64,000 nt of DNA. It comes from Gammaproteobacteria bacterium. Its GTDB lineage: Bacteria > Pseudomonadota > Gammaproteobacteria > UBA4575. The stretch spans positions 31,920 to 95,919 of the forward strand of contig CBDCTA010000026.1 of assembly GCA_965221955.1 (NCBI GenBank), read 5' to 3'. A program made the position numbers and the translations under genes. The notes beneath the pieces were generated by a model, which was not told the DNA's origin, searched no databases, and saw nothing but the letters and a program-made list of their open reading frames with translations. Positions 37,417 through 59,341 of this stretch are shown one piece after another (the first letter of the stretch is position 1; each line of letters begins with the position of its first letter).

Positions 37417-37507
37417 GGAGAGATGCCGGAGTGGTCGAACGGGCTCGCCTGGAAAGTGAGTGTGTCCTAATAGGGCACCGAGGGTTCGAATCCCTCTCTC
37501 TCCGCCA
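37417..37507 (+). tRNA. tRNA-Ser(GGA), integration hotspot
   Basis: GGAGAGA/TCTCTCC acceptor stem, anticodon loop CT-GGA-AA (37451-37453), long variable arm, GGTTCGAATCC, encoded CCA. Confidence 0.97.
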
Positions 37508-37758
37508 GCCAGTCTTGTCTCTTGCAAGAGACGCTAGATGTTGAGCAGAAAAGGCCTATTTCTGCAGGGATTTGCGAAAAGAAAAACCTGCAAGGGGCGC
37601 CCTACAATTTGTTTTTGCCCTCAATACTGCCAAAAGTCTCTTTTGTGAATTTCGCGGTGCCCCTTTGGGTAATCCATTGATTGGGTCAAATATAGCTTTA
37701 TTCAGTCTTGTTTACATTATGAATGTCCGCTTTCGGCCAATAGCGGACATTTAAATTT

Positions 37759-38463
37759 CTAGTATTCTACTGCTTTGTACGTTCTACCTTCTATTGGAGG
37801 TGTATCTAACGGCTCAGCATTTTTAAATGTAACTGGAACAGTCTTACATCCATGTAATATAGAATCTTTTGGATATTCAATTGCTCGAATATTGCAATCT
37901 TTATAATCCTTTTCAAAAATCGAAAAGTGTAAATGAGGGTCAAGCGCATAGCCTGATTGACCACTTTTACCTATAACTTGGCCCTGTTTAACTTTTTCTC
38001 CAATCTCAACAAAACTTCCAAAACTTGTTAAATGCACATAAGCAGAGACTCTTCCGTCATCATGTTCTATTGCAATAAAGTTTTGTTTCGTAACATCATT
38101 GGTGTTGTCATCCCAAAGTTCATCAACATTAATCACAACCCCATCTGCTACCGCTACAATTTCATCACCAATTGGCATCGAAAAATCATAGGCAAATTGT
38201 ATATCGCCAACTGAACCACCCTTCATCTCTGAGGCAGGTTGATGTGTGAGCATTCCACAATTGCCTTGGCCTACTACATAGGCTGCACCAACTGGATATG
38301 GGAGGATATATTTTGATTCCTCAGCAGGGGTGTATTCTGATAACCAGCAACCCTTAACATGACCAATACGAACATCATCTTCTCTTGAAATCTCGGTCTG
38401 CTGATTTGTTGTGCTACACGAGAAAACAGATAAAACTATTATTGCTGTAACTATTTTGTTCAT
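37759..38463 (-). CDS. M23 family peptidase, lipoprotein
   Basis: Lipobox VFSC, YDFSMPIG, YVHL, HLHF. Confidence 0.88.
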   Translation of the reverse strand: MNKIVTAIIVLSVFSCSTTNQQTEISREDDVRIGHVKGCWLSEYTPAEESKYILPYPVGAAYVVGQGNCGMLTHQPASEMKGGSVGDIQFAYDFSMPIGDEIVAVADGVVINVDELWDDNTNDVTKQNFIAIEHDDGRVSAYVHLTSFGSFVEIGEKVKQGQVIGKSGQSGYALDPHLHFSIFEKDYKDCNIRAIEYPKDSILHGCKTVPVTFKNAEPLDTPPIEGRTYKAVEY

Positions 38464-38530
38464 GGTAATCCCATATTTTAAAATGTCCGCTTTAGGTCGT
38501 TAGTGGATATATACTTCCCTACAATTGTTT

Positions 38531-39976
38531 CTAATTTCTCACATTTCTTATCATATCCAGATAAGAGTCCAAATGCCCTCTAACAGGCTCATTAATTTCT
38601 TTATTATCTGAAATCTCCATTACTGTATTATCTTTGTTTAATGTAATTAAATTACTTGTAGATTTTCTTGTTATGCCTTGATTTAATTGTTTTTGTTTAT
38701 TTATCGATTCTAATTGCATAGCTAGCTTAGCTTGAAGAGCTTTGTTGCGATCGATTAATTGCTGATTAAGTAACACATACTCTTCTTGTTTAGCTTGACC
38801 TATATGGAAGTATTTAATCTTTTTTTCATATTGATTCTTGAGCATGTCTTGCATGTCACTAAGGGCTAAAATTTTTTCTTGATGTCTTTGTCCTAACAGC
38901 CTTATTTGTAGTAAATATGCTTCGGATTTATTGGGTGAAATTGTTTGTGCAATCTGCAAATACTCTGTTGCAGCTTCGTAATTATTGGTTCGTAATTGGC
39001 TTTCTGCTAATGAAGTGTAGTGTTGATAAATTCGACTGATGCCAAATTGAGCCTCACTATTATCACCATCTATGAGTAATATTTTTTGATATGTCTCTAA
39101 TGCATTGTCTCCTCTTGGAGAGTTGAGTCTCCCCTTTATTAAATGAGAAGTCGCGAGCGCGTGTAGTTCTTTTATAGATTCATTATCTCCTAAATCTTGA
39201 CTGTTGTTAGCTATAATTGGATCGTCGCTTGATAGTGTTTGATCGGTCGAATCTATTTTGTTTAGATTAGAGATGTTCTCCCAAAATGGCGCATCGTTAA
39301 AAACCAATAATCCTATCGTTAACATTAATGCTGCTAACGAACTTGCGGATAGGGCTATAGATAGTTTAATCAAAGAATCTACATTGGCTGCTTTAATCCT
39401 CAACCATTTATTTAACGAATCTACTGACGCACTCTTTATTTTAGGCAAGTTACATATTTTATATACCTTGATGGGTTGTTTGATATTAGGCACTCTGAAC
39501 TTCGCCACATACGAGATTGAGAAAGGAATGTATTTATTCAGCTGCAAATGAGCTTGCTCCGACAAATAAATATCATTGGGCGTAGCAAGCTCTTGCAATC
39601 TCGCAGTTATGTTCACTTCATTACCATAAGGTTCACCTTCATCCAACACAATGTATCCATAGTTGACTCCGATTCGAAAATTTATTTGTTCAGAAGTCGG
39701 CGAATGATTATTAAGATTTGTTGCAGCAGTTTGAATTTCTGAAGCACAATAGACAGCTTCTTCTGATGTTGGGAAAGTCGCCATCACACTATCCCCACGT
39801 AATCGTACAATCGTTCCGCGCTTACTTTTTACTATTTTTTTAATAACTCGAAAACGTTGGGTTAGATTCTCATGCGTTTTTGTTTCATTGGTTTCTGTTA
39901 ATTCTGAATAGTTAACAATATCTGCAAGAAGAATTGCACATTTTATTTGAGTCAGTTTTCCAGATGGGAGATTCAT
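38531..39976 (-). CDS. Class III adenylate/guanylate cyclase domain membrane protein with TPR-like C-terminus
   Basis: ADIVNY, GDS, FRIGVN, G..VN..ARL; one TM; helical repeats. Confidence 0.85.
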   Translation of the reverse strand: MNLPSGKLTQIKCAILLADIVNYSELTETNETKTHENLTQRFRVIKKIVKSKRGTIVRLRGDSVMATFPTSEEAVYCASEIQTAATNLNNHSPTSEQINFRIGVNYGYIVLDEGEPYGNEVNITARLQELATPNDIYLSEQAHLQLNKYIPFSISYVAKFRVPNIKQPIKVYKICNLPKIKSASVDSLNKWLRIKAANVDSLIKLSIALSASSLAALMLTIGLLVFNDAPFWENISNLNKIDSTDQTLSSDDPIIANNSQDLGDNESIKELHALATSHLIKGRLNSPRGDNALETYQKILLIDGDNSEAQFGISRIYQHYTSLAESQLRTNNYEAATEYLQIAQTISPNKSEAYLLQIRLLGQRHQEKILALSDMQDMLKNQYEKKIKYFHIGQAKQEEYVLLNQQLIDRNKALQAKLAMQLESINKQKQLNQGITRKSTSNLITLNKDNTVMEISDNKEINEPVRGHLDSYLDMIRNVRN

Positions 39977-40055
39977 ACTGCACCTCCATTGTCATTTTTG
40001 ACTATATTTCTCGAAATGTTATGTAGCAGTCCTGCTCATGATGTCACAACTATAT

Positions 40056-40195
40056 AGTGATATAAATCACTGATAAATTGTGACAATTATTATTTTCGTT
40101 CTAACGTGTTGATTTTAATCAGTGTGTCTTGTTTTCAGAAATTAAAACTCCTTAACTGTATTCCTTGTTACTAAATCTTAGTGACTAAAGTCACT
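40056..40195. promoter_or_regulatory. Two CRP-like palindromes in a divergent promoter region
   Basis: AGTGA-TATAAA-TCACT (40056-40071) and AGTGA-CTAAAG-TCACT (40180-40195). Confidence 0.5.
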
Positions 40196-40286
40196 TACTC
40201 ATTGAGATAAAAGCACTAGTCTGTAGCTGATAGACAAAATAACGACATCAATATTTGAGACTTCGAATAAGTAGAAGTAATAAAAA

Positions 40287-41021
40287 ATGAGTAAATACGA
40301 GTATTTTACGGTGGGATGCCGATCATTATTAATCGTGATGACCATTAGTTGTAGTGGAGGTGGAGGTGGAGGTGGAGATGGTGTATCACAAGGTACTCGC
40401 GTACCAAACACATCTGTATTTGGATGTTTTTTAGAAGACTATCCTGATCCCACAACTTCTGAATATATTCTTCCTTATCAGGTTGGAATGTCATTTGTAA
40501 TGAATCAAGGTAATTGCGGTCAATTTATTACACACCGACCTATGTGCACAGCAATTAATGCAATGGGACAAATTGTTAGTTGTGGTGACGGTAGATATGC
40601 TTATGATTTTGCTATGCCAATTGGCATAGTAATACTTGCTACTCGCGGAGGAACAGTAACAAATATCATAGACGGGTTTAGCAATTCAACCAACAGAGTA
40701 GACCAAGCTAACTTTATTACGATAGAACATGCTGATGGCTCTGTGGCTTCGTATATCCACTTATCTCCAAATAGCTTTATGGTTAATGTAGGGGATGTAG
40801 TTCTGCAAGGAGACCCGATAGGATTGAGTGGATCTAGTGGTTTTACTGATCCTGGTTTTAGTAATCCACATCTACATTTTAATGTAATTGTTCCTCCTTT
40901 TGATTTTTGTACAACTACTGATTTTTCTGGTTGTCTAACAATCCCTGTGACTTTCAGAAATGCAAACCCATTAGATGCGCCACTTATTGAAGGGAAAACT
41001 TATAGTGCATTACCTTTTTAA
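40287..41021 (+). CDS. M23 family peptidase, lipoprotein (paralog of 37759-38463)
   Basis: ISC + poly-Gly linker, YDFAMPIG, YIHL, HLHF; shares QGNCG and PVTF.NA.PLD motifs with the paralog. Confidence 0.88.
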   Translation: MSKYEYFTVGCRSLLIVMTISCSGGGGGGGDGVSQGTRVPNTSVFGCFLEDYPDPTTSEYILPYQVGMSFVMNQGNCGQFITHRPMCTAINAMGQIVSCGDGRYAYDFAMPIGIVILATRGGTVTNIIDGFSNSTNRVDQANFITIEHADGSVASYIHLSPNSFMVNVGDVVLQGDPIGLSGSSGFTDPGFSNPHLHFNVIVPPFDFCTTTDFSGCLTIPVTFRNANPLDAPLIEGKTYSALPF

Positions 41022-41161
41022 CAGGTGAAATTTAAAGACAGAAATTAGATTGACACCAATGTCCGCTTTGGGTCGTTAGCGGTCATTTTAAGTTTGTAGT
41101 TCATTGATTCCAACCTGTTGCTCCCCTAATTATGTCCGCTTTCGGCCAATAGCGGTCATTA

Positions 41162-41365
41162 CTAAGACTGGATGAAAAAGCTATACGCCAGCACAGCAAA
41201 ACCAAAAATAATAATTCCTATTGGCACTCCACTGTCATAAGACGGATTCATCGAACCTTTATCTGGTAAGACAAACCCAGACTGATACCAAAGAAATACT
41301 CCGAGGATAACTATTCCAACACCAATTAGCATTACGAAATATTTATAAATCAAAGCTTTCTTCAT
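41162..41365 (-). CDS. Small two-TM membrane protein
   Basis: Two hydrophobic helices; fills the space between two hairpin repeats almost exactly. Confidence 0.65.
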   Translation of the reverse strand: MKKALIYKYFVMLIGVGIVILGVFLWYQSGFVLPDKGSMNPSYDSGVPIGIIIFGFAVLAYSFFIQS

Positions 41366-41597
41366 CTAATTATGTATGAATATAAATATCCGCTTTAGGT
41401 CGGAAGCGGTCATATTAAGTCTGTTATTTTGTGATTCCAATCTGATTATCCCTTAAATAGTTTAAATTATGTCTGCTTACGGCCAATAGCGGTCATTCAT
41501 TATAGTGAGTAAAGTATTGAAGCAGATATAATTCATTGATGGTAACTACTCATCATTTCTGCGACACTATTGTCACCTTATCTCATTGGAGTTTGTT

Positions 41598-41942
41598 ATG
41601 GCTACGAAAACGAAAAAAAAGAAATCAGCAAAGAAGCGCACGATAACTAGTATTAAACAGGAATTGACCACCTTAAGAAAGGTAGCCAGGAAAGAAACCG
41701 ATGCTTTGAAAAAGGTGGCTGCGAAAGATACGGCAGCCTTGAAAAAAAAGATAGCTCAGCTAAATGCAAGGAGCAAAAGAGAAGCAGCTGCCCTAAAAAA
41801 GAAGGTCGTCACTGCGGAAAAAAAAGCCGAGGCTGAAATTGCTGCGTTGAAAAAGGCATATACAGCATCAAAGAAAGCTTACACTGCGTCTAAGAAAAAA
41901 GTATCTAAGAAGAAGGTAGAAAGGAAGAAGTCACAAACTTGA
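41598..41942 (+). CDS. Lys/Ala-rich histone H1-like basic protein
   Basis: GGAG RBS before ATG 41598; ALKK repeats, strongly basic. Confidence 0.7.
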   Translation: MATKTKKKKSAKKRTITSIKQELTTLRKVARKETDALKKVAAKDTAALKKKIAQLNARSKREAAALKKKVVTAEKKAEAEIAALKKAYTASKKAYTASKKKVSKKKVERKKSQT

Positions 41943-42156
41943 AATACGAGCAAGAAATAAACATTTTTTTCGATAGATTGAATTCGCAGAACTTATATAA
42001 CCAGATATCTTAGATCGTTTTCGTTGGTAAATATAATGTCCGCTTTCGCTCAATAGCGGACATTGTTAGTCGTAGGGGCTCATTCTTGCCATTCTTGAAT
42101 TGCTTTAACTACTATCGAGCTTTTTCTCAGAATACATAAAAGAGCATTACATAAAA

Positions 42157-42417
42157 CTATTTAATTCTCATTGCTTCCACAACTTCACCGCCATCAACTT
42201 TTGTTAGTGTAGCGCCACAAGCAATAACCTCAGTATCAGCAGGCCAGCTAATTACATAGGACCTATCAATTCGATTGATTTCCCAAACTGAACCATCTTC
42301 AAGAGTTACCATGCTTCCGTCGCTAGTTTTTTCTTTAATCAAGTGGCCTTCATCGCACCCAATCGCTATGGCGGAAAAACTTAACAACACTATGAAAGCT
42401 AATTTTAATGTCTTCAT
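42157..42417 (-). CDS. Small exported protein
   Basis: Signal peptide, two Cys, LEDGSVW beta-rich motif. Confidence 0.7.
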   Translation of the reverse strand: MKTLKLAFIVLLSFSAIAIGCDEGHLIKEKTSDGSMVTLEDGSVWEINRIDRSYVISWPADTEVIACGATLTKVDGGEVVEAMRIK

Positions 42418-42549
42418 TCTTATTACCCTTGAATCGCTCTAGCTATTCTCGAAAAGTTTCCCAGATTCGTTAAAGAATATAGCTGAAAGCTAATGATTAA
42501 TTGATTTAAATCATAAAAATTATCATGAGTATTTAGCTAGAATAACGTT

Positions 42550-42742
42550 GTGCTAAGCGGGTTAGCACAGTACGTTGGATAGCCAGTTGAGGGAGTAATT
42601 ACACCAGGCTAGCTAACGAAAACCAAATAGTGGTTTGCCTAACTGCCGATTCGCCATCCTCAAGGCGTGGCTTGAAAAGGTACAAAATTAATCCGTAAGA
42701 AGCCCCGTCTATAAACTAGTATTAATGAGATGGGGCTTTTTT
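42550..42742 (+). ncRNA. Candidate structured sRNA with FNR-like promoter and terminator
   Basis: TTGAT-N4-ATCAT at 42501, TAGAAT at 42538, several helices, terminator 42701-42742, no ORF. Confidence 0.5.
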
Positions 42743-42887
42743 ATTTGTTCCACTATAATTATGCCGCTAATTATTCAGCATGTCCGAATTGGGTCGTTAG
42801 CGGTCATTTTGAAGATTTGTTTTGAAGATTCCAACCTGACTTTCCCTAAATTTATTTAAATTCTGTTCGAATTCGGCCAATAGCGGA

Positions 42888-43356
42888 CATTTAGTAAGAG
42901 GACTCATTGCGTAGTATAGAGTCCTGTATTGTAGAGAACACTCATTAAGGATGCAGTTATAGTAGTAGAGACTGAATGCCTAGCATGCAGTCCAAGCGAA
43001 CTTCGGTTCCGTTTTATGCTCAAATTCGAAGGAAAGATTAAAAATTTGTCTCTGCGGCAAGTTCAGGTAGTTTTTCTCACAAGAATTCAGGAGCTTGCAG
43101 CTCAAAGGGGCACCGAGGATTCGAATCACCTTCTCTCCGCCAGCCAGTCTTGTCTCTTGCAAGAGACGCTAGATGTTGAGCAGAAAAGGCCTATTTCTGC
43201 AGGGATTTGCGAAAAGAAAAACCTGCAAGGGGAACCCTACATTTCGTATTTGCCCACATTTCTTCCAAAAGTCTCTTTTGTGAATTTCGCGGTGCCCCTT
43301 TGGGTTAGCTATTGATTGGGTTAACTATAGCTTTATTCAGTTTTATTTACCTTGAG
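42888..43356 (+). repeat. Junction repeat copy 1: right end + tRNA-Ser 3' fragment + left end
   Basis: Closely similar to 43883-44299; the distal part also matches 37473-37720. Confidence 0.92.
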
Positions 43357-44137
43357 AATGTCCAATTACGGCTAAAAGCGGACATTAGTATTTTTAAGTG
43401 TGTGGTATTTTTTTAGTTAAAAAAACCTACAAATTATCCCTTAAACCAAGTTCTTACTAGCATTCATTTATAGATATATCCGAAATATAGATTTCGGAGA
43501 TATATTCGCTCGCCTTTTATTCAAAAGGTCTTGAATTAACTTGTTTTATAAGGATAAGTTTCAATGAGATATGGGCCTAACGCTAAAAAAGAATTTCAAA
43601 AAATGATTGAAAAAGCTTGTAAAGATAGCCTTGTTACACCAAAAGAACTACTAAAGGAACTTGTAAGTTCTGGATATAAACATTTTTATGACTTGGAAAT
43701 CACTTTAGATGATTTAAAGGCAGTGTGTGAAGATCTTGAAGATAGCAAGGAAATTGCAGAGCTGTGGAGTCATAAAAGCGGTGTAAGAACAGATTATGAA
43801 ATTAGTGATTGAAATAGAAATATCTGACCACTACATAATCACTCCCTCAAATAAGTTAATGTCCGCTTTGGGTCGTAAGCGATATTTAGTAAAAGGACTC
43901 TTTGCGTAGCAAAGAGTCCTGTATTGTAGACAGCTCTCATTAAGGATGCAGTTATAGTAGTAGAGACTGAATGCTTAGCATGCAGTCCAAGCGAACTTCG
44001 GTTCCGGTTTATGCTCAAATTCGAAGGAAAGATTAAAAATTTGTCTCTGCGGCAAGTTCAGGAAGTTTTTCTCACAAGAATTCAGGAGCTTGCAGCTCAA
44101 AGGGGTACCGAGAGTTCGAATCTCTTTCTCTCCGCCA
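43143..44137. mobile_element. Integrase-less mini unit 2 (995 bp, one cargo gene)
   Basis: Left end, hairpin 43357, 82-aa ORF, hairpin 43858, right end, tRNA-Ser 3' copy 44103-44137. Confidence 0.75.
43564..43812 (+). CDS. Hypothetical protein, sole cargo of unit 2
   Basis: AGGA RBS, 82-aa charged ORF between hairpins. Confidence 0.6.
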   Translation: MRYGPNAKKEFQKMIEKACKDSLVTPKELLKELVSSGYKHFYDLEITLDDLKAVCEDLEDSKEIAELWSHKSGVRTDYEISD

Positions 44138-44299
44138 ATCAGTCTTGTCTCTTGCAAGAGACGCTAAATGTGGTGCAGATAAGGCCTATTTCTGCAGGGA
44201 TTTGCGAAAAGAAAATCATGCAAGGGGCACCGTCCATTTCTTTTTTTGCCCTCAATGCTGCCAAAAGTCTCTTTTGTGATCATCAAGGTGCCCCTTTGG
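43883..44299 (+). repeat. Junction repeat copy 2 (left end truncated at the tRNA-Met remnant)
   Basis: Matches 42888-~43303. Confidence 0.92.
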
Positions 44300-44303
44300 C
44301 TTT

Positions 44304-44381
44304 GGCTATTCAAATGTATATTGGTAGAGCACTGTCTTCATAATGCTGGGGTCGGTGGTTCAAGTCCACCCATAGCCACCA
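44304..44381 (+). pseudogene. Degenerate tRNA-Met(CAT) / att remnant
   Basis: GGCTAT...ATAGCC-ACCA acceptor, intact T arm GGTGGTTCAAGTCCACC, CAT loop; D arm and anticodon stem mispaired. Confidence 0.75.
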
Positions 44382-44606
44382 CTTTCGAAACTAACTAATT
44401 GTTTTTATTAAAACGCATTGGGCGATCGCAACGCTTAATTTCTTTTTTGTGCACAACAAAGCACAACGAGTCCGTCATAAGTCCGTCAGTAAGAACTTAT
44501 AAAAATTGATAACGATCCAATATACTCAGCTGACTGTAAATAACGCATGTGTTTGAAACGTAAGATCGAAATGGAAATTCAATGCTACTTTGTAAAGTAG
44601 TAATGC

Positions 44607-46309
44607 TTAAAATAATCCTCGGATGTCTCCAGATTCGGTATCAATATCGATATGCCTAAAAGCGGGATCTGAAGCAGTCCCTGGCATAAGTTTCAAACTA
44701 CCTGTCACAGGAACCAATAAACCTGCACCGGCATATATAAGAATGTCTCGAATAAATAAGCGCCAATTCTCAGGTCTACCTTTTTTATTCGGATTGTCAC
44801 TAAGGCTTAGAGGAGTCTTAGCTATGCAAACATGAAACTTCCTAACGGCTTTATCTTGATTAATGTGATGTAATTTTTCTTTGGCAGTTGGTGTATAGGA
44901 TATATCTTTAGCGCCATAAATCTCTGTTGCAATGGTTTTGATCTTTTCTTCAACAGAAATATTTTCAGGATATAAACAGTGAAAGTCTGCTTCTGTATTG
45001 CATGCATCGATTACTGTTTCAGCAAGTTCGAGTGAACCTTCACCACCTTGTTCAAAGTGTTTAGAAACCGCGAATTTTATACCTGCCTGTTGGACAGCTT
45101 TCTTCACGTGATCTATTTCTTCATCATGGTCAGTCGTGAAATGGTTTAGACAAACCACTGGTGAAATGCCACATTTATTGATGATATCTATATGCGCCCA
45201 TAAATTTTCAAGACCTTTTTCTAATAAGCTTAAATTCTTTTGTGTATATTGATCACTTAAAGGTTTACCAGGCTTAACTGGAGGACCACCTCCATGCATT
45301 TTGAGAGAGCGTATGGTAGCAACTAGTACAATACAATTAGGAGCAAGCCCACTTAGTCGATATTTAATATTCCAAAATTTTCAAAACCTATATCGGCCCC
45401 AAATCCACTTTCTGTCACATGGTAATCGGTAAGCTTTAAACCAACTTTGTCTGCGATAATGGATGATTGACCTAATGCTATATTTGCAAAAGGTCCGCAA
45501 TGTACAAGCAGTGGTTGACCTTCAAGAGTTTGTAATAAGTTTGGCGCGATTGCTTTAGATAACATTGCAGTCATTGCGCCATCGACTTCTAAATCTTTTG
45601 TTGTAATAGGTGTGTTATCTTTAGAGTACGCGACTATCATCTTTGAGATGCGTTCACGCATATCCTTCATACTCGTACAAATAGATAAAATAGCCATCAA
45701 CTCAGAAGAGACGCTTATTTGGAATCCGCTTTGCAGCATAAAGCCATCGGTTTTATCGCCTATACCTATAATAATTTCTCGCAGAGATTGCGCGCATAAA
45801 TCGATAGCCCAATTTATAGAGAGATTTCTTGGATCGATGTTAAGTCGCTTAAGGTGTTTATGTTCTAGAGTTTGATCAGAATAATTAAATTCATGTTGAA
45901 GACGGCTAGTAAGTGCAACCATTCCAAGATTATGCGCATTGGTGATTGCGTCGAAGTCTCCAGTTAAACCAAGACTAAATTCTGAGAGAGGCACGCAATG
46001 CGCTAATCCACCACCTCCAGCAGAACCTTTAATGTTAAATGTGGGACCACTTGAAGGTTGGCGAATCGCGCCAGTAACTTTCTTATTCAATTTGCCTAAA
46101 GCTTGGATCAAGCCAATTGTGGTGGTGGTTTTTCCCTCGCCAAGAGGCGTAGGCGTAATCGCAGTTACATCAATATATTTGCCAATAGAAGATTGTTCGC
46201 GTCTTTTGAGTATTTTTGAGTGATCTAATTTTCCTATGTGATGTCCATAAGGAATATATTCTGTTTTATCTAAGCCAAGTTCATTGGCAAGTTGGTCTAT
46301 TGTTTTCAT
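44607..46309 (-). pseudogene. fhs: Formate-tetrahydrofolate ligase, one frameshift at ~45380
   Basis: TPTPLGEGKTTT, GPFANIA, TESGFGAD, IAKTPLS, MPG; one missing A in GAAAA restores FEKFWNIK. Confidence 0.92.
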
Positions 46310-46344
46310 TGATGAAGCGTATGTTGAAAGTAAATTCTGACGCC

Positions 46345-46358
46345 TTGATTTAAATCAA
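46345..46358. promoter_or_regulatory. FNR box (perfect)
   Basis: TTGAT-TTAA-ATCAA in the fhs divergent promoter region. Confidence 0.7.
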
Positions 46359-46529
46359 TATCAGCTAAGACATGTTCAAGTATTATTTTAAGTCGCTAAA
46401 ATAATAAGTACATTTCTTCATGAAAAAATCTACTACAACTGTTCGCAATGCTTTGTTATTACTAGCATGCATTATTGTATTTCTTGTTTGTGCAGCTATC
46501 ATTGCTCGTTCACTTGGATAAATAATTTT

Positions 46530-47038
46530 ATGAAACGACTTTGTTTTCTCTCACCAGACCTTGAGCATGCCAAAACGGTCATTCAAGATTTAAAGGATAA
46601 TGATATTAAGGAAAAGCATATCTACACGATTGCAAAATCAGGTACACCCTTGGGAGATTTGCCTGATGGGGTCCAGACGATGATGATTTTCTACCTGCAT
46701 TTGAGCGCGGTGTGGCACTAGGTGGTGTGACTGGTATATCTTTAGGTCTTGTTGCAATGGCATTTCCTCCTGCAGGACTCGTAGTAGGAGGAGGGGCTAT
46801 CTTGTTAATAGGCCTCATGGGGGCGAGTGTAGGGGGATTGCTTACGGGTATGGCGGGAGCTGCCTTTCCTAGTTCACGTCTCGAAAAATTTGAAAGTGAA
46901 ATCGATGCGGGAAAAATACTTATTATGGTAGATGTGCCTGTTGATCGGGTCGAACATTTCAATCGACTTATTAAAGATTTTGACCCTGAAATTGAGATTG
47001 AAGGAATAGAACCACCAGCTCACTTAATTCCTAAATAA
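46530..47038 (+). pseudogene. DUF1269-like membrane protein, frameshift at G run ~46670
   Basis: Joining the two ORFs gives MKRLCFL...PDGGPDDDDFLPAFERG, Gly-rich TMs, then FESEIDAGKILIMVDV. Confidence 0.7.
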
Positions 47039-47091
47039 ACATACTTGAATATCGTTCAAATTGTTTGCATATATAATAGCCAACATAAAAA

Positions 47092-47325
47092 ATGCCAAGC
47101 GAATTTGAGCATGTTGAAATTCTTATTCTAGAAGATCTGAGTCTTTCACAACGTTCAATGCTCATTGCAAAACTCGACCATGAAAGAGGGATTATCCAAG
47201 CATGGTTTGATCCTGAGAACCATCACCACCTTATTGTCGAGTATGGGCGTGATCATTTTAGCCATCTTACGTTATTAGATTTTATTAAATTACATGGATT
47301 TCATGGAAAGATTGTGAAAATTTAA
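47092..47325 (+). CDS. Small HMA-fold-like protein without CxxC
   Basis: Pattern GI..AWF...HHHLIVEY.......LL..I...G. Confidence 0.55.
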   Translation: MPSEFEHVEILILEDLSLSQRSMLIAKLDHERGIIQAWFDPENHHHLIVEYGRDHFSHLTLLDFIKLHGFHGKIVKI

Positions 47326-47377
47326 TTTTGTATTCACACAAGAGATCTAAATATTGGTGAATATTAAACTACATAAG

Positions 47378-47740
47378 CTAAGTTTCGACTTCATCTTTAG
47401 GATTCGGAAGCCCTGCTAATTTGCAAAGCATGCGAATTGGCCCATGTGGAAATAGTTCATACAGAAAAGTTTTATAGCTCTCCTCATCAGAAAACTTTTT
47501 GTTCTCAAGTTTTGCGCGACTAGCAAGCAGCTTATGCATGCTCGGATGTGTCATATGCATTTCATAGTATTCTCTAAAGAAGCTGATTAGCTCCCATCCA
47601 GTTTCAGTAATCGGTTTATGTCCTTCAGATACATGCTGTTTTATTATTTGCTCCGCAACTTGTTCATCCCAATCATCTGGGGTAATTAGATAACCTTCAT
47701 TATCAGTTTCAATAATTTTATTATTTACTTCAATAGACAT
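47378..47740 (-). CDS. DsrC/TusE family protein lacking the C-terminal Cys
   Basis: TDNEGYL...DW, LFP.GP, CKLAGLP.P; ends KDEVET. Confidence 0.85.
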   Translation of the reverse strand: MSIEVNNKIIETDNEGYLITPDDWDEQVAEQIIKQHVSEGHKPITETGWELISFFREYYEMHMTHPSMHKLLASRAKLENKKFSDEESYKTFLYELFPHGPIRMLCKLAGLPNPKDEVET

Positions 47741-47818
47741 CTATCTGCTCCTTCTAATTGCTTCTTATTTCAATTTAGTGAACTAATATAAGAATAAATT
47801 TATTTATTTGTAATTCAT

Positions 47819-48277
47819 TTAGTGCTTAAAGCTGTTACCACACCTACGCCCAAGTCCTCGTCCATTTCGCGGCATACTCTCGCGTTCGACACAACGTTCA
47901 AAGGCCGGCAGGTGGTTGTCACGTGAGGCAGCTTGCAAACATTGCAAAACTTCTAATACATCAGGAAAATCAGTGGCGTTGATTAGTCGCTCATACATAG
48001 CGATGTTTTCAATTTCTCCCGCTACACCATCTTCACACGCTTTTAATAGGTCAGAATGAATTAGTATTCGATCAAGATCTGGTTCTGGAGGTACTGAAAT
48101 ATTGTATTTTTCATAAAGCGGTAACAGCATTTCTATATGTGCTTGTTCAGATTCAACGATATTAATAAAGGGACGCACTGGACCGAATTTATTGATAACT
48201 TTTCGGTACGTGTCTCTGGCATTGTATTCGTCCATTAAGGCCTCATTGAGTACTTTTGCTAATGTGTTTTTATTCAT
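47819..48277 (-). CDS. Ferritin-like (DUF2202-like) protein
   Basis: DEY.A...Y, PF.NI..SE..H, EIENIAMY, S..NHLPAF. Confidence 0.8.
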   Translation of the reverse strand: MNKNTLAKVLNEALMDEYNARDTYRKVINKFGPVRPFINIVESEQAHIEMLLPLYEKYNISVPPEPDLDRILIHSDLLKACEDGVAGEIENIAMYERLINATDFPDVLEVLQCLQAASRDNHLPAFERCVERESMPRNGRGLGRRCGNSFKH

Positions 48278-48292
48278 TATCTATTCTCATTT

Positions 48293-49040
48293 CTAGTTTG
48301 TATCTAATATTTTTAATAATAAAAGAAGCGATATACCAATAATAAAAAACAAAAAACTAATAAAGTTTTCTTTTAGGTTGCCATGTTTATTGATTTCAGG
48401 AACGAGATCAGATGCTGCAATATAGATAAAATTTCCAGCAGCAAAAGGTAAAAGAAAGGCAACATCAAATTTTGTTGATGCACTATATGCAATTAATCCA
48501 CCAATGAGGAATGTAAAGCCAGAAAAAAAATTAAACAATAAAGCGCGATTTTTTTTAAAACCACCGTGAATTAGAACTCCAAAATCCCCAAGCTCCTGTG
48601 GTATTTCATGAGCTGCAGCGGCAATCCATGTGGTTATTCCAATACGAATATCTATTAAAAATGCGCCTGCAACCGCCATGCCGCCAATAAAATTATGGAG
48701 GCCATCACCTAATAAAATGAGGTAGGTAAGTGGCTGTTTACATTCAGAGGATGCTTTATGGCAATGATGCCAATGTAGGAATTGTTCTAAAATAAAAAAT
48801 ACTGTAAAGCCAATAATGACCCATATAAATGTAGAAATTTGAATTCCATCTGTCTCGAGCGTAGCCGGAATCATATGAAAGGAAAGCGCCGCCTAGTAAG
48901 GAGCCCGCAGATAGAGCTACTAAATGTAAGATAACTTTATCTAAAGTGCTCTGTTTGATGAACAGAGTTACACTGCCAATCAACGCGATGGAGCTCATTA
49001 ATATACCGCCGACGATAATCCATGTAAGTGGATTCGTCAT
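48293..49040 (-). pseudogene. ZIP family metal transporter, frameshift ~48880
   Basis: GDGLHNF, HEIPQELGDF, GNFIYIA; N-terminal half in another frame. Confidence 0.88.
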
Positions 49041-49091
49041 TTAGTAACTTCTAAATAAGTTGATATCTTTTGCAAAGACAACTAAAAACTT

Positions 49092-49670
49092 TCAAGCAGC
49101 TACGGTAGTAGTAGATGGGATGCTGTAAATTTTCGGGTCGTAGGCAGCATGCTTGGATAGGATCTCCATTGCTTGTTTCTCATGATCCTCATCGCGTGTT
49201 CTTACAAATAAAACAAGACGACCACGATCTACTTGTTCCTCGAGATACTCAGCATGACTTTGATGAATTAGCGAGCCTATCACTGCTCCAATACCGCCAA
49301 TTACAGCAGTAGTTGCTGCAGCTGTTATCAGTGCACCACCCAATACACCCGCGGTAGCCACTATTGCGCCTCCTGCAACAGCAGCCCCAGTTATAAACAA
49401 GGTGCCAAATAGGGCATGAGGTACATCACCGATAGATTCTTTAGCAACAAAGGCAGTTTGAGGTGCATCTGGACTATCTATATCTTTATTTACTTCTTCA
49501 TATATATGTCCCAGTTTCTCTTTCACGGTGAAGTCACCTGCTAGAAGACCTAGCTCTTCATTTTTAAACCCTGCAGCTTTGAGGTCCTCAACCGTCTCCT
49601 CAATTTTCTCAACTTTAAAAAAGATACCCACTGCTTCTCGAATATCGGCTGATTGTTTATCGTTTTTCAT
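49092..49670 (-). CDS. Membrane protein, general-stress-protein-like
   Basis: EAVGIF...L..AGF, Gly/Ala-rich TM hairpin, G.LVLFVR. Confidence 0.7.
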   Translation of the reverse strand: MKNDKQSADIREAVGIFFKVEKIEETVEDLKAAGFKNEELGLLAGDFTVKEKLGHIYEEVNKDIDSPDAPQTAFVAKESIGDVPHALFGTLFITGAAVAGGAIVATAGVLGGALITAAATTAVIGGIGAVIGSLIHQSHAEYLEEQVDRGRLVLFVRTRDEDHEKQAMEILSKHAAYDPKIYSIPSTTTVAA

Positions 49671-49860
49671 TTTTATGATCCCACCTTTTCAATTGTGAAG
49701 ACTGCCTGAATTACAGAATCAAATCTTGGTTTTAATCAAAATTAGCATAATTTAGTAAAGTCAAGGTTGCTTGATATGGGTCAACTTTTTTTCATATATC
49801 TAAAATAAAATTTGACGTTTAGGGTTTCACATAATCATATGCATATATCGGAGAGAAATA

Positions 49861-50346
49861 ATGACAGCAATAACAGCAACTAAAATAGATATTGGTATCA
49901 ATGAAGAAGATCGCATAAAAATAGCGGAGGGATTAAAACGATTGCTAGCTGACTCCTATACCCTTTATTTACAGACACATAACTTTCATTGGAATGTAAC
50001 AGGGCCTCAGTTTCATGAATTACATATTATGTTTGAAGACCATTACACGGAATTAGCTGTAGCTGTGGATGATATCGCTGAGAGAATACGTACACTTGAT
50101 ATACCTGCACCTGGAACCTATTCAGAATTTTCCAAGTTAAGCTCAATTAATGAAGTCGAGGGCGTACCTTCAGCTAATGAAATGGTGAATTTATTAACGA
50201 GTGGGCATGAAAAAGTAGTTAAAACATGTCGGAGTGTTTTAAAAGTCGCTGAACAAGCTGATGATGAATCTACGGCAGCGCTTGTATCGGATCGTATGCG
50301 AATTCATGAAAAAACAGCTTGGATGTTAAGGGCTATAAACCAATAA
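49861..50346 (+). CDS. dps: Dps DNA-binding ferritin-like protein
   Basis: [29 protein letters not shown]. Confidence 0.96.
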
Positions 50347-50437
50347 ATTTTATATTGTTGAATTTATGGCGACTTTTTGGTCGAACAGGACAAAAATTAA
50401 AGGGTAACAAGTTGGGTTCGACGAATAACACTTCTAT

Positions 50438-51077
50438 AATGACTGCTCACAACCAAAAGCGGACGTTTAAACAAGCTCTATCAAATAATCAATAAATGTT
50501 ACAAGTAAATTCTTTGATAGATGATGGCGTGGAGAAGTAGCAATAGAAACCAAACATTAGGGAAGATTGTTTGGATAGGAATTCCAACTCACCACATTCC
50601 CCACACCTCCATAAAGATAAATCTGTTAGCTGATAGCACCCCACTTACGCCACTTTTTCATTGGACCAGTCTCTGGAGTAGTTGTTTTGTGATAGTTGTG
50701 ACTCTCAGGGTTATTACAATAACCACAGGCTTTGTGCGCTTATAGTTTTCCCATCCTCAGAGAGTTTGCGTATACCACCCCAATATTTACAAGTAGCACA
50801 TTTACCTTCTGTATCAGAGGACATTTCAAAATGTAATCCAGCTTTTGCAGAAGATGAAGCAATACCTCCTGCAGTAGCTAAAGCAAATAAAGCGCCCGTT
50901 TTGCCTAGTAATTCTCTACGATTTATCTTTGTTTTATCCATGGTATCTCCTTGTTCATATACGATAATGGAGACTACAGAAATATTTAAATATAAATTTG
51001 ATTTATATCAATTACGAAGTGTAAGTTAAGTAATTCAAATATTAGCGAATGACCACTATTGGTTGAACGTGGGCATT
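50438..51077 (-). repeat. Two reverse-oriented 30-bp hairpin repeats flanking one gene
   Basis: Reverse complements: 50438-50467 AACGTCCGCTTTTGGTTGTGAGCAGTCATT; 51048-51077 AATGCCCACGTTCAACCAATAGTGGTCATT. Confidence 0.7.
50626..50941 (-). pseudogene. Tat-exported small Cys-motif (HiPIP-like) protein, frameshift ~50725
   Basis: NRRELL Tat motif, CATCKYW; removing one base gives GYCNNP...GPMKKWRKW; perfect FNR box at 50998-51011. Confidence 0.6.
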
Positions 51078-51128
51078 CTGATTATTGGGAGTTTGCGCTA
51101 ATATATAAAAAAGGTTAGGGGCCATGTA

Positions 51129-51972
51129 ATGAGTTTCTCTGTTCTAGTTTGGAACGTCCAGAAATTTAGAGGCGAAAGTCAAAGCCGCATTGATGATGTC
51201 GTTGAGCATATACGAGCTGCTGATCCTGATATCTTTGGGAATTATCGAATTAGAAAAACCCGCTAAAGCTGTTGCCCGTCAACTTATCGTCGAAGAGTTC
51301 ACTGACTACGACTTTGCAATTACTGACTCAAAAAAACAAATAGATTTCCTGATTGGTTGGAAGATCAATATATTTGAACAAATACTCTTTACTCAACGCA
51401 GAGATTTCCAAGAGGGAAACATAAACCTTCGACCAGGAGGTCTCCTAAGCGTCCGACTTCCGAATGAACAGGCATTCCACAATGTTCTCTTCCTCCACAC
51501 TGACAGTGGCAAAACCTTAGAAGAATACAAACGTCGACAAGCGATGTTTAAAAAGATCTGGAGTTTGCGAGGTGCACTTGAAAATCTTCCGGTTCAACAA
51601 GGGGTCGCCCGCTTGGTGGCTTTGGGTGACTTGAATACCATGGGTCGATCTAGAACGAATACATTGCCAACACTTAAAGCTGCAACAGAGATTGATGATT
51701 TACGAGCGGATGCACTTGCGAAGGGGATGCGGGTACTCAGTAAGTCAGCTTCACTTACTTATAGGAGTGCTGGAGGTCATCTTAAGGGGAACTTAGACCA
51801 CGTGCTGGTGAGTAGTGATTTAGATGTAGAGTTATGGACTGATCCTGCGCAAGAGTTTAGTCCGTTTGAGGTTGAAGTTACTGGTTGGAATCTATTAGAT
51901 GAGCCAGAAAGGACGAGTTTTATAGAAGATGTAAGTGATCACTGTGCTTTATTTGTGGAAGTAATTACGTGA
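51129..51972 (+). pseudogene. Endonuclease/exonuclease/phosphatase family protein, frameshift ~51238
   Basis: WNV...DIFGIIE after removing one G; GDLN, LDHV, SDH. Confidence 0.82.
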
Positions 51973-51985
51973 GTTTAGCTGAGTT

Positions 51986-52900
51986 TTATATTTGGATTGC
52001 TTTTTGATGTGTGACCATATTTTTAACAAGAGCAACACCTAAATGATTTTCTATAATTTTGTAGCAATTAGAATTCATTGTAGTATGGGATATTGCAATG
52101 ATGTACATTTAATAGCGCATCTTGTAGTTTTTGATCTTCTTCTAGAACTTCTATATTTAGACCTAAATCAATACATTCTTGTAATTCAACATGTCTATCG
52201 TGTAATTTTTGTTGTGTCACATCAGATAATGAATTAGTTATTCTTTCTGATTTGGCTTCAGCTTCATCGTTATTTTCAAACATACAGTTTTGTAGTTGTT
52301 GCTTTACAAATTGCTTAGCAAGATGAGTCGCGTTGTATGCTTGTTCTAAAAAACCAAGTTGGTATTTTTGTAATATAGGGTGCCAAACTAATGCGCGTGT
52401 TTGATCATTTTTTATTTCGACATGCGCACGTTCAAAGTCATTAATTATAGAATATGCTGAGAAACCACCAATTTGAGGGTCAATTGGGCCAAGGTTGGAC
52501 TGTTTCCCCATTACAATTGATTTGCATGAACAAGCAATCATAGTTCCCAGCCGACATAGCTAATTGCGGGATTAATACACGTATATCATTTCCAAACATT
52601 GAATGTAAATAATTTGTAATCGACTGTGCGGCAGTTAAACCCCCACCAGGTGTATGTAATATGAGATCAAGACCTTTTGTTCTATCCATTTTATGAATTG
52701 CCATCATAAAACCATTTTTATCTTCATCGTTTATCGCCATTTCGGGTGTGTTCGGTTTACTTAACCATCCAGAATAGTACGTAATCACGTTTCTTTTAGT
52801 ATAGTTATGATATGCTTTGAGATACTTTCTACGAACACCATCACTAGGTGAAGTTGGGAATGTATTAATTTCCCTGTAGTATTTGATTCCAGTTAGGCAT
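51986..52900 (-). pseudogene. ClpP-like (SDH/S49-type) serine protease, about three frameshifts
   Basis: MPNWNQIL start, LDLILHTPGG, AMSAG(T)MIA, LGPIDPQ, H.RH, KIIEN. Confidence 0.82.
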
Positions 52901-52937
52901 GACTTTTTAACCTTCAAAATAACTTTGTAAAAAAATT

Positions 52938-53132
52938 ATGAGCGAAAAAGATAAAATTGAATCTACATATAAGTTTATTTCACAGCAATTTGAAAATATA
53001 AACGAAGTTAGTCCCGACCTTTTAAAACAGCTCGAATTTAACCAAAAAGTTTATAGCCAAATTGATTCAGATGAATATTATTACGAAACATTTGGTTCTT
53101 GTGATGCATTCAATTCTACACCTACAAAGTAA
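52938..53132 (+). CDS. Hypothetical small acidic protein
   Basis: 64-aa ORF with protein-like composition. Confidence 0.4.
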   Translation: MSEKDKIESTYKFISQQFENINEVSPDLLKQLEFNQKVYSQIDSDEYYYETFGSCDAFNSTPTK

Positions 53133-53384
53133 AATTTTATTGCAAAAATTTGAGAGGTCATGATTATATAGTTGAATCCGCATTACCCCCCGTACCCCCT
53201 AGATCGACCAGCGGCCAACCAAAACCCAACCTAAATCAGTCAAAAGTCAGGCAAATCTCCCACCCTCTGTCCTAACCTGTTGTTTCCTTTAGCCAGAGTA
53301 CTGCCTTGGTAGAGCTGTGCTTAACTGAAAACTGTAAACTAGGTTTTGTTTGTGCTCTCATTTCAATTGCTAAGTAAATTGATT

Positions 53385-55007: not shown

Positions 55008-55485
55008 TGGAGGATTTGGTTAAGCCAAAGAACCGTGGCCCTGAAATGTGGGAATTGGTTATTAGTTTAGCGATGGGTGTGAGGCTTTTAAACAGTTCAC
55101 CGTTATACAGATACCCTTCTTTAACTTTAGTCACGCGATAGGTTTCGCCTTTCCATTCCCGAAGGATTTGGGTGCCTTTTGCAGGTTCGGCTTTTGGTTT
55201 CTTATGGTTGTTGAGCGCTTTGAATTTTTTGTAGATTTTCTCGCGCAGTTTAATGGGATCATGGCCTTGGGCTTTTGCCTGTAAACCCCAGGCCACATTG
55301 CCGTGCAAAAAGGTGGTACTGACCCGTTTAGGGACCTCTTTGTGATACAAGCGTACAAAGTGCTCTTTGAGTAAGGCGATATCCTCGCGGGTTAAGTCTT
55401 TGGTCGCCTTATTAATCAGGGCCTGATCTTGGGGTTTCACCCCACCATTCGTCCATACGGTGGAGTGGAAGTCCAGTTCTTTCAA
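54997..55485 (-). CDS. DUF2924 family protein
   Basis: GT.ILREWKG, Y.G..FKSL..IA..IT....SGPRFFGL; overlaps the recombinase start. Confidence 0.85.
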   Translation of the reverse strand: MKELDFHSTVWTNGGVKPQDQALINKATKDLTREDIALLKEHFVRLYHKEVPKRVSTTFLHGNVAWGLQAKAQGHDPIKLREKIYKKFKALNNHKKPKAEPAKGTQILREWKGETYRVTKVKEGYLYNGELFKSLTPIAKLITNSHISGPRFFGLTKSSNGQ

Positions 55486-55488
55486 GCA

Positions 55489-58676: not shown

Positions 58677-58710
58677 CTCATAAGGTTATTTAGAAGCCGA
58701 CAGTATTGCA

Positions 58711-58747: not shown

Positions 58748-58763
58748 ATTATAGGCAGAGAAG

Positions 58764-59324: not shown

Positions 59325-59341
59325 TTAGGTATTAGCTAAGC

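Follow-up and report, generated by a model that had tools for sequence, protein, structure and literature searches.

Two types of extragenic palindrome delimit gene modules that turn over between strains of a gammaproteobacterium

To our knowledge, the stacking and shuffling of single-gene cassettes is well understood only in integrons, where it depends on IntI and attC. The pdif modules of Acinetobacter plasmids are gene modules that are bounded by 28-bp recombinase-type sites and have no integrase of their own. Neisseria genomes contain Correia elements and dRS3/NIME, in which short inverted repeats carry outward promoters and 20-bp palindromic repeats bracket variable segments. The arrays examined here have an integron-like outcome that appears to be reached with different sites, at tens of loci per genome, with a promoter for each cassette and with no integrase found.

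The window, that is, the whole stretch of 64,000 nt that was analysed (part of contig C26 of genome G000), contains an array which an earlier note had described as eleven co-oriented palindromes of two subtypes, A and B. All eleven lie on the + strand where the note placed them, with the subtypes as it assigned them. Its pattern, searched with up to 2 mismatches, gave 13 matches over both strands of the 64-kb window and 0 in 100 shuffles; the loci matched are 37722, 41058, 41131, 41385, 41468, 42035 and 43357, plus 50438 on the - strand, which is a twelfth site beyond the original eleven. The more diverged sites at 38482, 42779, 42862 and 43858 (C26 positions 70402, 74699, 74782 and 75778, respectively) emerged when type-specific 28-mers were searched, allowing up to 5 mismatches. 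The features of the window are as follows.

37417-37507, +, tRNA-Ser(GGA) (ARAGORN; Rfam tRNA, 56 bits)
37722-37751, +, B site, perfect copy, left boundary of the array (ssDNA fold -10.1 kcal/mol, z -5.05)
37759-38463, -, cargo: M23 peptidase, 234 aa (Pfam PF01551, E 7.9e-21)
38482-38511, +, A site with diverged right arm, 4 mismatches (type-specific 28-mer)
38531-39976, -, cargo: class III nucleotidyl cyclase with TPR region, 481 aa (Pfam PF00211, E 2.9e-12)
40287-41021, +, cargo: second M23 peptidase, 244 aa (Pfam PF01551, E 1.1e-14)
41058-41160, +, junction unit: A 41058-41087, 43-nt spacer, B 41131-41160
41113-41085, -, promoter-like TTGGAA-17-TAAAAT inside the preceding junction unit
41162-41365, -, cargo: 67-aa ORF without Pfam family
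41385-41497, +, junction unit: A 41385-41414, 53-nt spacer, B 41468-41497
41586-41942, +, cargo: 118-aa lysine-rich ORF without Pfam family, reverse of the usual orientation
42035-42064, +, B site, loop variant TTCGCTCAAT
42157-42417, -, cargo: 86-aa ORF without Pfam family
42779-42891, +, junction unit with both sites diverged: A 42779-42808, 53-nt spacer, B 42862-42891
43357-43386, +, B-like site, 5 mismatches
43564-43812, +, cargo: 82-aa ORF without Pfam family
43858-43887, +, A site whose right arm is truncated, where the array ends within the window on the right
50356-50467 (approximate), -, lone decayed junction unit (A, spacer, B)

The array starts 215 nt downstream of the tRNA gene. 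The 3' end of tRNA-Ser, with the sequence downstream of it, is present a second time ahead of the B-like site at 43357. The tight packing reported for two of the genes is correct to the nucleotide: the M23 ORF at 37759-38463 stops 7 nt from B and starts 18 nt from A, and the 67-aa ORF stops 1 nt from B and starts 19 nt from A. The fold previously ascribed to B, with one extrahelical T, was not recovered; in its minimum-energy single-stranded DNA fold, B forms an uninterrupted 10-bp stem that closes a 10-nt loop, and a T-T mismatch belongs instead to the fold of A.

With the type-specific 28-mers (up to 5 mismatches) we counted 165 sites across G000, 84 of type A and 81 of type B. They are extragenic palindromes of 28 bp (28-30 bp), and column profiles separate two kinds that differ in the centre, with inverted arms of 9-11 bp around a short, type-specific middle. 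No covariation was found between the arms of A or B palindromes, so a selected hairpin is not demonstrated, and protein recognition of the duplex arms would fit this better than a selected hairpin. The sites are strongly clustered: 112 of 134 units have a neighbor within 1.5 kb, where uniform placement predicts 18.6, and eight arrays, 45 kb together, contain 98 of the 165 sites. This is not the dispersal through the core genome that would mark REPs. There are about 45 site clusters per genome, with arrays and solo cassettes numbering in the tens, and 30 of the 44 oriented clusters follow a bias with respect to GC skew. Such a bias, together with the short, many-copy, extragenic nature of the palindromes, would suit REP sequences kept by a RAYT (Y1 HUH) transposase. 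However, the bias is accounted for by the co-orientation of the cargo genes, the 5' GTAG is absent on direct reading, and the REP/RAYT search which the earlier note had called for produced no match to the Y1 transposase family PF01797 in G000 or in five other site-rich genomes (G010, G019, G043, G044 and G045). We therefore regard upkeep by RAYT as very improbable.

A module consists of a B site, one or a few small genes and an A site, and its genes mostly run from A to B. Genes had been described as facing either way, which is true of the window but not of the genome, where the main ORF runs from A to B in 54 of 85 modules and in the opposite direction in 10 (21 have no dominant ORF). The median module is 482 bp long, with the stop codon a median of 15 nt from a site and the start codon about 30 nt. 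Because cassettes are stacked head to tail, successive modules are linked by a conserved joint of 101 or 111 bp, composed of A, 45 or 55 nt, and B (counted with 28-bp sites); start-to-start spacings in 31 junctions are 73 (13 junctions), 83 (11), 72 (2), 82 (2), 59 (2) and 71 (1). A promoter-like element, TTGGAA, 17 nt, TAAAAT, stands in fixed register at 26 of 84 A sites, compared with 6 of 5000 random positions, and its -10 hexamer extends over the opening bases of the A palindrome. In 29 of 30 junctions TTCCAAC lies 21 nt from A, whereas the distance on the B side varies from 17 to 27 nt. The predicted functional joint is the whole A-spacer-B unit, bearing the promoter-like element. The cargo is diverse and accessory, and includes M23 peptidases, GNAT acetyltransferases, a globin, cyanase, OsmC, Hsp20 and others; the M23 cassette DNA is present in only 2 of 56 genomes of the family.

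The sites delimit modules of which the content changes from strain to strain and from species to species, and the breakpoints coincide with the sites. In two pairs of co-assembled strain alleles, C14 versus C23 (flanks 99.0-99.5% identical) and C10 versus C29:132-136 kb (98.7-99.7%), the array interior is replaced, and homology ends in both at the boundary B and A sites, so that the strain comparison which had been proposed as a check places the change in gene content exactly at the palindromes. The cargo takes the inner halves of the boundary sites along with it, and C14 carries one additional 1059-bp B-to-B module. Across the genus, the locus that runs from xerD and a gene of the RDD family to lptG is empty in G001, holds X (a long inverted repeat, see below) and a decayed B in G013, one cassette in G014 and three in G010, and has 6 or 22 sites in the two G000 alleles. 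Additionally, each of three cassettes is found again in unrelated surroundings, and the homology stops at the sites. The M23 cassette has three contexts, the other two being C5:749-1535 of G000 (86% identity) and a locus in G006 (82%), and the similarity ends at B and A; one cassette of a C5 array has a 77% match in a solo platform of C17; and the copies at C5:25788 and C11:2728 are 97% identical and have atypical site halves in common, while their flanks are unrelated right up to the sites. The position of the crossover is inconsistent: in the C5/C11 pair it falls to the left of position 18, but in the recombinant B of C14/C23 it falls between 19 and 25. The allelic contigs could also differ through replacement of the whole array via their identical flanks. 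No excised circle or empty-site junction was seen in the assembled contigs of four runs, where the apparent joints have sides of about 30 nt or less and lie inside repeats.

The arrays lie within long inverted repeats rich in GGA-loop hairpins (X), which the earlier note did not mention and which are insertions in intergenic DNA. Copies of X adjoin partial sites as if X had inserted into a site, and two X-bounded "empty" platforms of 180-210 bp (C22:45729-45937 and C29:575437-575614) hold one site each. At the xerD-lptG locus the platform is an insertion relative to the empty locus of G001. These observations would suit non-autonomous transposons or MITEs whose transposase is absent from the assembly; the mover could then be either the X-bounded platform or the junction unit, which at 101-111 bp ends in 10-bp inverted repeats (AATGTCCGCT and AGCGGACATT). 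We consider this unlikely. No transposase family was found in G000, which has no match to IS110, rve, DDE_Tnp_1 or TnpB; no target-site duplication is definable with flanks compared at 75% identity; cassettes change context without spacer or X; and the arrays, which start at a complete B and finish at a complete A, have solo sites at their ends that do not agree with a junction unit always moving whole.

The joint can also be compared with an unusual class of attC, belonging to an integron or to an integrase-less attC cluster. The unit at 41056-41162, about 100 bp in length, forms a single long, imperfect hairpin in which two boxes are paired and the terminal loop is variable (-15.5 kcal/mol on the + strand, -18.7 on the - strand, z about -4.2), and the ORFs are small and co-oriented within hypervariable arrays; a second junction unit folds more weakly (z -2.9 and -1.5). 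Nevertheless, the reported lack of RYYYAAC/GTTRRRY boxes holds in all 31 junction units (0 of 31, on either strand, at the expected places), arrays end in a whole B and a whole A rather than in attI and a whole attC, and there are roughly 45 clusters in a genome. The reported lack of intI was borne out as well: the best TIGR02249 score in G000 is 83 bits against a cut-off of 265, the matching proteins are the XerD and XerC equivalogs, and none of the five other site-rich genomes, two of which are complete, has an IntI above cut-off. We give this explanation next to no credence.

Recombinases in G000, which is 96.6% complete, are limited to XerC and XerD (both equivalogs), one P4-like integrase and one large serine recombinase. 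The last two were rejected as the enzyme of the system, as neither co-occurs with the motif: among 41 relatives the motif is found in 20, the P4-like integrase in 6 and the large serine recombinase in 4. A Xer/dif-like system was rejected by sequence, since A and B are unlike the genome's own dif-like site at C4:59807, which is 4 positions off the dif motif used as the query. In layout, A and B do resemble the sites of Xer/dif-type modules, being 28 bp long with inverted arms on either side of a short middle. Thus, of the earlier proposal of an integron-analogous system with an enzyme acting in trans, the part that stands is that the sites bound exchanged modules; no candidate enzyme was found.

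The same palindrome family is not private to this lineage, but is patchily distributed in other Gamma- and Alphaproteobacteria; a search of 72,556 plasmids gave no match to the A or B sites, and the location here is chromosomal. In G019, which belongs to another genus, the genes beside the sites are metabolic and of ordinary size, and the sites often form runs of A alone, an arrangement that looks more like REP elements. This bears on a serious rival, namely host homologous recombination at REP- or BIME-like regulatory repeats that have no recombinase. The palindromes would then act as outward promoter, as operator at the transcription start and as 3' stabilizer or terminator, and they would serve as portable homology for RecA-dependent or short-homology exchange after DNA uptake because they are the only conserved sequence in horizontally acquired islands of genes. 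The two extragenic subtypes with set linkers are BIME-like, the promoter-like element keeps a set place at A, searches of G000 and the five other site-rich genomes turned up no dedicated enzyme, the 101/111-bp joints supply about 100 bp of homology on each side of a cassette, and a patchy yet widespread family is typical of selfish or regulatory repeats. On the other hand, the extreme clustering is unlike dispersed REPs, and the left junction of the C5/C11 pair (flanks X plus linker versus A plus spacer) offers at most 28 bp of homology, no more than the length that is usually considered enough for RecA-dependent exchange. The retention of the same 28-mer in genomes of 38% and of 60-67% G+C also argues for a sequence-specific partner. 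We hold this rival to be possible, with a minority share of the probability.

The explanation that we consider most likely, with a probability of roughly 55%, is a cassette-shuffling system, distinct from integrons, in which recombination takes place inside the palindromes, A and B being the boundary sites of a genome-wide family of cassettes. Read in the direction of the gene, a cassette comprises the promoter-like element at A, about 30 nt, the ORF or ORFs, and B about 15 nt past the stop codon. Exchange would take place within 28-bp double-stranded core-type sites, with inverted arms of 9-11 bp and a centre of 6-10 bp, and A would recombine with A and B with B, which would permit single-cassette excision, insertion and two-sided replacement. 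The catalyst would be a protein not recognizable in this assembly, either of a new family or encoded elsewhere. More tentatively, and at odds that we would not favor, this may be a second, integrase-independent cassette platform of Gamma- and Alphaproteobacteria, in which single genes with their own promoters, flanked by heterospecific 28-bp core sites (A 5' and B 3'), are exchanged one at a time by a recombinase of an unrecognized family at landing pads seeded by the long-inverted-repeat element.

If the exchange is driven by an enzyme, the recombination system would be new, as would this route of gene flow among environmental Proteobacteria, and the heterospecific pair of short sites would be of interest as a tool. 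If it is enzyme-free, it would show REP-like repeats organizing the flexible genome into exchangeable units. In either case the A and B sites offer a ready means of locating pools of accessory genes in metagenomes.

Among known systems, integrons resemble these loci in having arrays of small modules that are co-oriented and mostly hold a single gene, a recombination unit past each ORF that is about 100 bp long and able to form a long, imperfect hairpin, array content that is hypervariable from strain to strain, and similar cargo, such as GNAT acetyltransferases and small unknown proteins. They differ in that here no IntI, attI or R boxes were found, the joint is made of two autonomous 28-bp palindromes with different types of centre, each cassette appears to bring its own promoter, and there are tens of arrays and solo cassettes per genome, the arrays being bracketed by long inverted repeats. 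The pdif modules are alike in being discrete, in being bounded by 28-bp sites and in lacking a dedicated integrase within the module; however, the sites described here are unlike the genome's own dif-like site, flanking sites are co-oriented whereas those of pdif alternate, and the location is chromosomal, with 0 matches in 72,556 plasmids. REP, BIME and REPIN sequences are likewise many-copy extragenic palindromes of 28-30 bp with two subtypes and defined linkers, but here there is no RAYT, clustering around accessory genes is strong, module boundaries coincide with strain differences, and the same sequence is found in different bacterial classes. Finally, the Neisseria Correia and dRS3/NIME repeats are similar as inverted-repeat elements with outward promoters and an unknown or trans-acting enzyme; their sequences are unrelated, and the repeats described here differ in bracketing whole expressed genes with an ordered B-to-A polarity.

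The palindromic sites in the window are real, and the phenomenon is wider than the earlier note had seen. Its motif, searched with two mismatches allowed, gave 13 matches in the window with both strands counted, against none in 100 shuffled sequences. Type-specific 28-mers with up to five mismatches recovered all eleven of its sites on the forward strand, at the same positions and with the same division into two loop types. A twelfth, decayed unit lies on the reverse strand near 50438. The tight distances that it gave between sites and both the M23 gene (37759-38463) and the gene for a 67-aa protein (41162-41365) were exact. Each site consists of inverted arms of 9-11 bp flanking a centre that defines the type: the A site reads ATGTCCGCTTT GGGTCG TTAGCGGTCAT and the B site reads ATGTCCGCTTT CGGCCA ATAGCGGACAT. 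The source assembly (2.69 Mb in 29 contigs, here called C1 to C29; 96.6% complete, 4.3% contamination), in which the window belongs to C26, carries 165 such 28-mers, 84 of type A and 81 of type B. They are not scattered like ordinary REPs: of 134 units, 112 lie within 1.5 kb of another where 18.6 would be expected, and eight arrays, 45 kb in all, contain 98 of the sites, while 18 of the 45 clusters consist of a single site. Site orientation shows a replication-strand bias, which arises because the cargo genes are co-oriented and is thus not evidence for a single-strand mechanism.

The sites divide the arrays into modules. In 31 junctions a B comes at a set distance after an A, with a start-to-start spacing of 73 nt in 13 cases, 83 nt in 11 and 72, 82, 59 or 71 nt in the others, and the spacer sequence is conserved among them. 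The 85 modules between sites are 482 bp long at the median; in 54 of them the main ORF runs from A to B, in 10 it runs the opposite way, and 21 have no dominant ORF. The earlier observation that genes face either way therefore holds inside the window but not for the family genome-wide. Stop codons lie a median of 15 nt from the nearest site and start codons about 30 nt. Upstream of A, in the direction of the gene, we found a promoter-like element (TTGGAA, 17 nt, TAAAAT) whose -10 hexamer ends in the first two bases of A. A strict fixed-register test was passed by 26 of 84 A sites, compared with 6 of 5000 random positions. The distance on the A side is constant, at 21 nt in all but one of 30 junctions; the 10-nt difference in length between junctions falls on the B side. 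These regularities suggest that each cassette may carry its own promoter. A generic scan placed one such site within the window, and found no enrichment of promoter-like sites overall in the region:

41113-41085, reverse strand, promoter-like site

Some cargo and neighbouring sequences in the window deserve mention in their own right. The cargo at 38531-39976 encodes a class III nucleotidyl cyclase with TPR repeats and a sub-threshold match to the Cas10/Cmr2 palm (E 0.009), and may be a signalling or defence-type gene. A 180-nt non-coding stretch within a module (42560-42740) terminates in a strong hairpin and then a T run, and matched no Rfam family at gathering score. Beyond the array, a formate-tetrahydrofolate ligase (44607-46309) is broken into two ORFs (230 and 318 aa) and is probably a frameshifted pseudogene.

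The assembly itself offers a natural comparison of strains. Seven pairs of contigs (C14/C23, C10/C29, C11/C26, C8/C18, C12/C13, C3/C19 and C6/C24) are allelic at 94-99.8% identity, so that a second strain is present for some regions; two or more strains have been co-assembled, which the 4.3% contamination fits. Comparison of these contigs bore out the expectation that gene content changes at the sites between strains. In the C14/C23 pair the locus lies between lptG and a group made up of xerD, an RDD-family gene and dsbC; the flanks are 99.0-99.5% identical, and homology ends at two boundary sites, a B at one end and an A at the opposite end. Inside, C23 has 12.4 kb with 22 sites, whereas C14 has 4 kb with 6 sites; one module of 1.49 kb is common to both, and an extra module of 1059 bp in C14 extends precisely from B to B. 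Likewise, C10 carries 1.4 kb and C29 (132-136 kb) 4.0 kb inside the same boundary sites. The xerD-to-lptG locus was also compared in five other species of the genus:

G001, empty
G013, decayed B together with the flanking repeat X (described below)
G011, X and B
G014, one cassette
G010, three cassettes

The 14 kb downstream of tRNA-Ser, where the window's array lies, is without sites in four of five species examined.

Individual cassettes recur in unrelated surroundings. The M23 cassette of the window is found again in an array on C5 (86% identity) and in another genome, G006 (82%), each time between B and A and with unrelated neighbours; a C5 cassette recurs at 77% identity in a solo platform on C17. 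The most informative pair is C5:25788 and C11:2728, which are 97% identical over 301 bp, with flanks unrelated up to the outer edges of both B sites. Both copies have the same atypical left-B loop end and right-B left arm, which indicates that the cargo takes the inner halves of its boundary sites along with it and that the exchange points lie inside the 28-bp sites. Cassettes thus move, or at least exchange as site-bounded units. The homology on offer at this junction is at most that of the site itself, and one 28-bp site provides little homology for RecA-dependent recombination.

Arrays and solo cassettes are flanked by X, an inverted repeat of about 60 bp. An nhmmer search gave 56 matches, mostly in facing pairs and none in the window; they are given here with two 'empty' platforms that X bounds:

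C17:16437-16497, X repeat
L128:1753-1816, X repeat
54 further places, X repeat
C22:45729-45937, 'empty' platform in the order X, linker, one site, spacer, X'
C29:575437-575614, 'empty' platform in the same order

X consists of two hairpins, both with GGA in the loop, which resemble the GGA-loop hairpins of Csr/Rsm-type RNAs, and five of its nine predicted pairs retain pairing despite changes on both sides. In G010 the inverted repeat continues for about 110 nt outward past X, with more GGA hairpins. Partial sites adjoin the outer ends of X, a B left arm and centre on one side and an A centre on the other, and may reflect either insertion of X into sites or diverged site arms.

Modular anatomy, cargo polarity, clustering, turnover at the sites and recurrence of cassettes together with site halves are direct observations. 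To account for them we favor recombination inside A and B acting as duplex, core-type sites, to which we assign a probability of roughly 55%. If exchange requires matching centres, A would recombine with A and B with B. Recombination between direct repeats would then release a circle of one cassette and one joint, which could insert into a matching site of any array, and paired exchanges on opposite sides, B with B and A with A, would replace a single cassette. Insertion at the lone site of an X platform would produce the observed solo cassettes, in the order B, cargo, A. In the empty platform at C22:45729 the sole site is B-like in its left part and A-like in its right arm, a hybrid that matches this last prediction. 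Weighing against site-specific recombination, the crossover position differs between two examples, no candidate enzyme was found in the searches described below, no excised circle was seen, and in genus g6 of the family the sites lie beside ordinary metabolic genes, often in runs made up of A only. Homologous recombination by the host, acting at REP/BIME-like regulatory repeats, would call for no dedicated enzyme; given the short homology at the C5/C11 junction and the clustering of the sites, we consider it the less likely explanation, though a serious one.

The window's own array lacks bracketing X repeats; it begins 215 nt downstream of tRNA-Ser, and its far end lies at repeats of the tRNA 3' end. 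The copies (91% and 88% identity) comprise the last ~35 nt of tRNA-Ser(GGA) and ~210 nt downstream:

37473-37720, first copy
42890-43107, repeat of ~230 bp directly before the second copy
43108-43353, second copy
43887-44103, repeat of ~230 bp directly before the third copy
44103-44299, third copy
44318-44375, partial tRNA (CAU anticodon loop, CCA end) in which the 3' two-thirds is present and the 5' part replaced

Further copies of the tRNA-Ser end occur on C11 and C20, and the arrangement looks like a stack of attachment-site scars from elements that integrated at the tRNA. The piece at 44318-44375, not called by ARAGORN or Rfam, probably represents a tRNA remnant at an integration site. Next to it, a 15-kb segment (44421-59361) is missing from the allelic C11, where 4.4 kb replaces it; it encodes a large serine recombinase (53385-55007), a DUF2924 protein, a terminase large subunit and a ParB-like DNA methylase, and is a prophage remnant or island that differs between two co-assembled strains.

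The arms of the sites do not covary: changes on both sides occurred at the frequency expected from shuffles, with no compensatory excess, and the arms of A differ from each other systematically. A selected hairpin structure thus gained no support, and the arms are at least as likely to be recognized as duplex. Folding did not reproduce the single extrahelical T proposed for B. When folded as single-stranded DNA, the whole junction unit forms a single long, imperfect hairpin through pairing of A with B.

The search for an enzyme covered the source assembly and five other site-rich genomes (two complete). No protein in these six reached the IntI cut-off and no junction unit contained R boxes, as the earlier note had anticipated in reporting neither intI nor RYYYAAC/GTTRRRY boxes; no Y1 protein was found in the same genomes. 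On both grounds for the integron and on the latter for REP/RAYT, we rejected these identities, and taken together they are very improbable in spite of the attC-like fold of the junction unit. Mobilisation by a transposase absent from the assembly we regard as improbable; IS110, rve, DDE_Tnp_1 and TnpB families had no match in the source assembly. No recombinase is among the 25 commonest Pfam families of the cargo (58 ORFs of the source assembly, and 26 of G022 and G019 together, the latter from another genus). Neither accessory recombinase tracks the motif, as a trans-acting enzyme would be expected to: the A site is present in 20 of 41 genomes, compared with 6 for the P4-like integrase (C29:2613-3908) and 4 for the large serine recombinase, itself part of the prophage remnant. 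XerC and XerD are ordinary equivalogs, and XerCD is unlikely because the genome's dif-like site (C4:59807, located with a dif motif, where the GC skew of C4 changes sign) is unlike A and B. A four-site palindrome cluster (C4:64595-65817) lies 5 kb from this site. The position of xerD beside one array is at about chance level given 45 clusters. No neighbour gene recurred across 80 loci of other genomes; the sole three-locus neighbour cluster of interest, an AddA-like helicase-nuclease, is due to synteny with the xerD locus. Joints in Logan contigs (four runs of one study) had short sides within repeats and therefore have no bearing on excised circles. Self-comparison of the genome also revealed tandem repeats at C22:1-1926 and C29:662144-663592, with periods of 339 bp and 294 bp.

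Of the 14 other genomes in the genus, 13 have the A site. Elsewhere in the family it is present in genera g2, g6, g8, g9 and g11, and it was not found in the family's sampled small-genome genera. By record title, the exact A 28-mer is also present in the isolates Lysobacter dokdonensis DS-58 and Noviluteimonas lactosilytica A6 and in alphaproteobacterial assemblies (Sphingomicrobium, Caulobacteraceae, Xanthobacteraceae and Pseudolabrys). In these records the flanks of A have 55-67% G+C, A-like and B-like palindromes lie 6-43 nt apart or in threes, and a generic palindrome has 16 to 175 copies in five such genomes. Several low-G+C contigs filed under distant phyla appear mis-binned. In an even sample of the phylum, at least one copy with up to one mismatch was found in 22 of 401 genomes, mostly with 1-5 copies per carrier, compared with 2 of 401 for the reversed control. 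The same arms with the same two types of centre across classes and base compositions argue for a sequence-specific partner, and the patchy distribution argues for horizontal spread.

Sites, spacers and X matched no Rfam family at gathering score or at E up to 5, and the junction unit had no match in plasmid and phage collections. Site strings of 16-19 nt were absent from the papers searched, whose supplementary files, outside the search, could hold such repeats, and two 10-nt strings gave unrelated matches only; keyword searches of listings and abstracts returned no description of such a system. We classify the system as gene cassettes bounded by short sites. The sites do not have the features that define REP/RAYT elements or Xer modules. 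Of the earlier designation as an integron-analogous cassette system, the enzyme acting in trans was not found and the features that define integrons are missing, but the analogy stands in that content turns over at the sites: the likeness to an integron array lies in its way of working, and the likeness to attC in the long imperfect hairpin of the junction unit.
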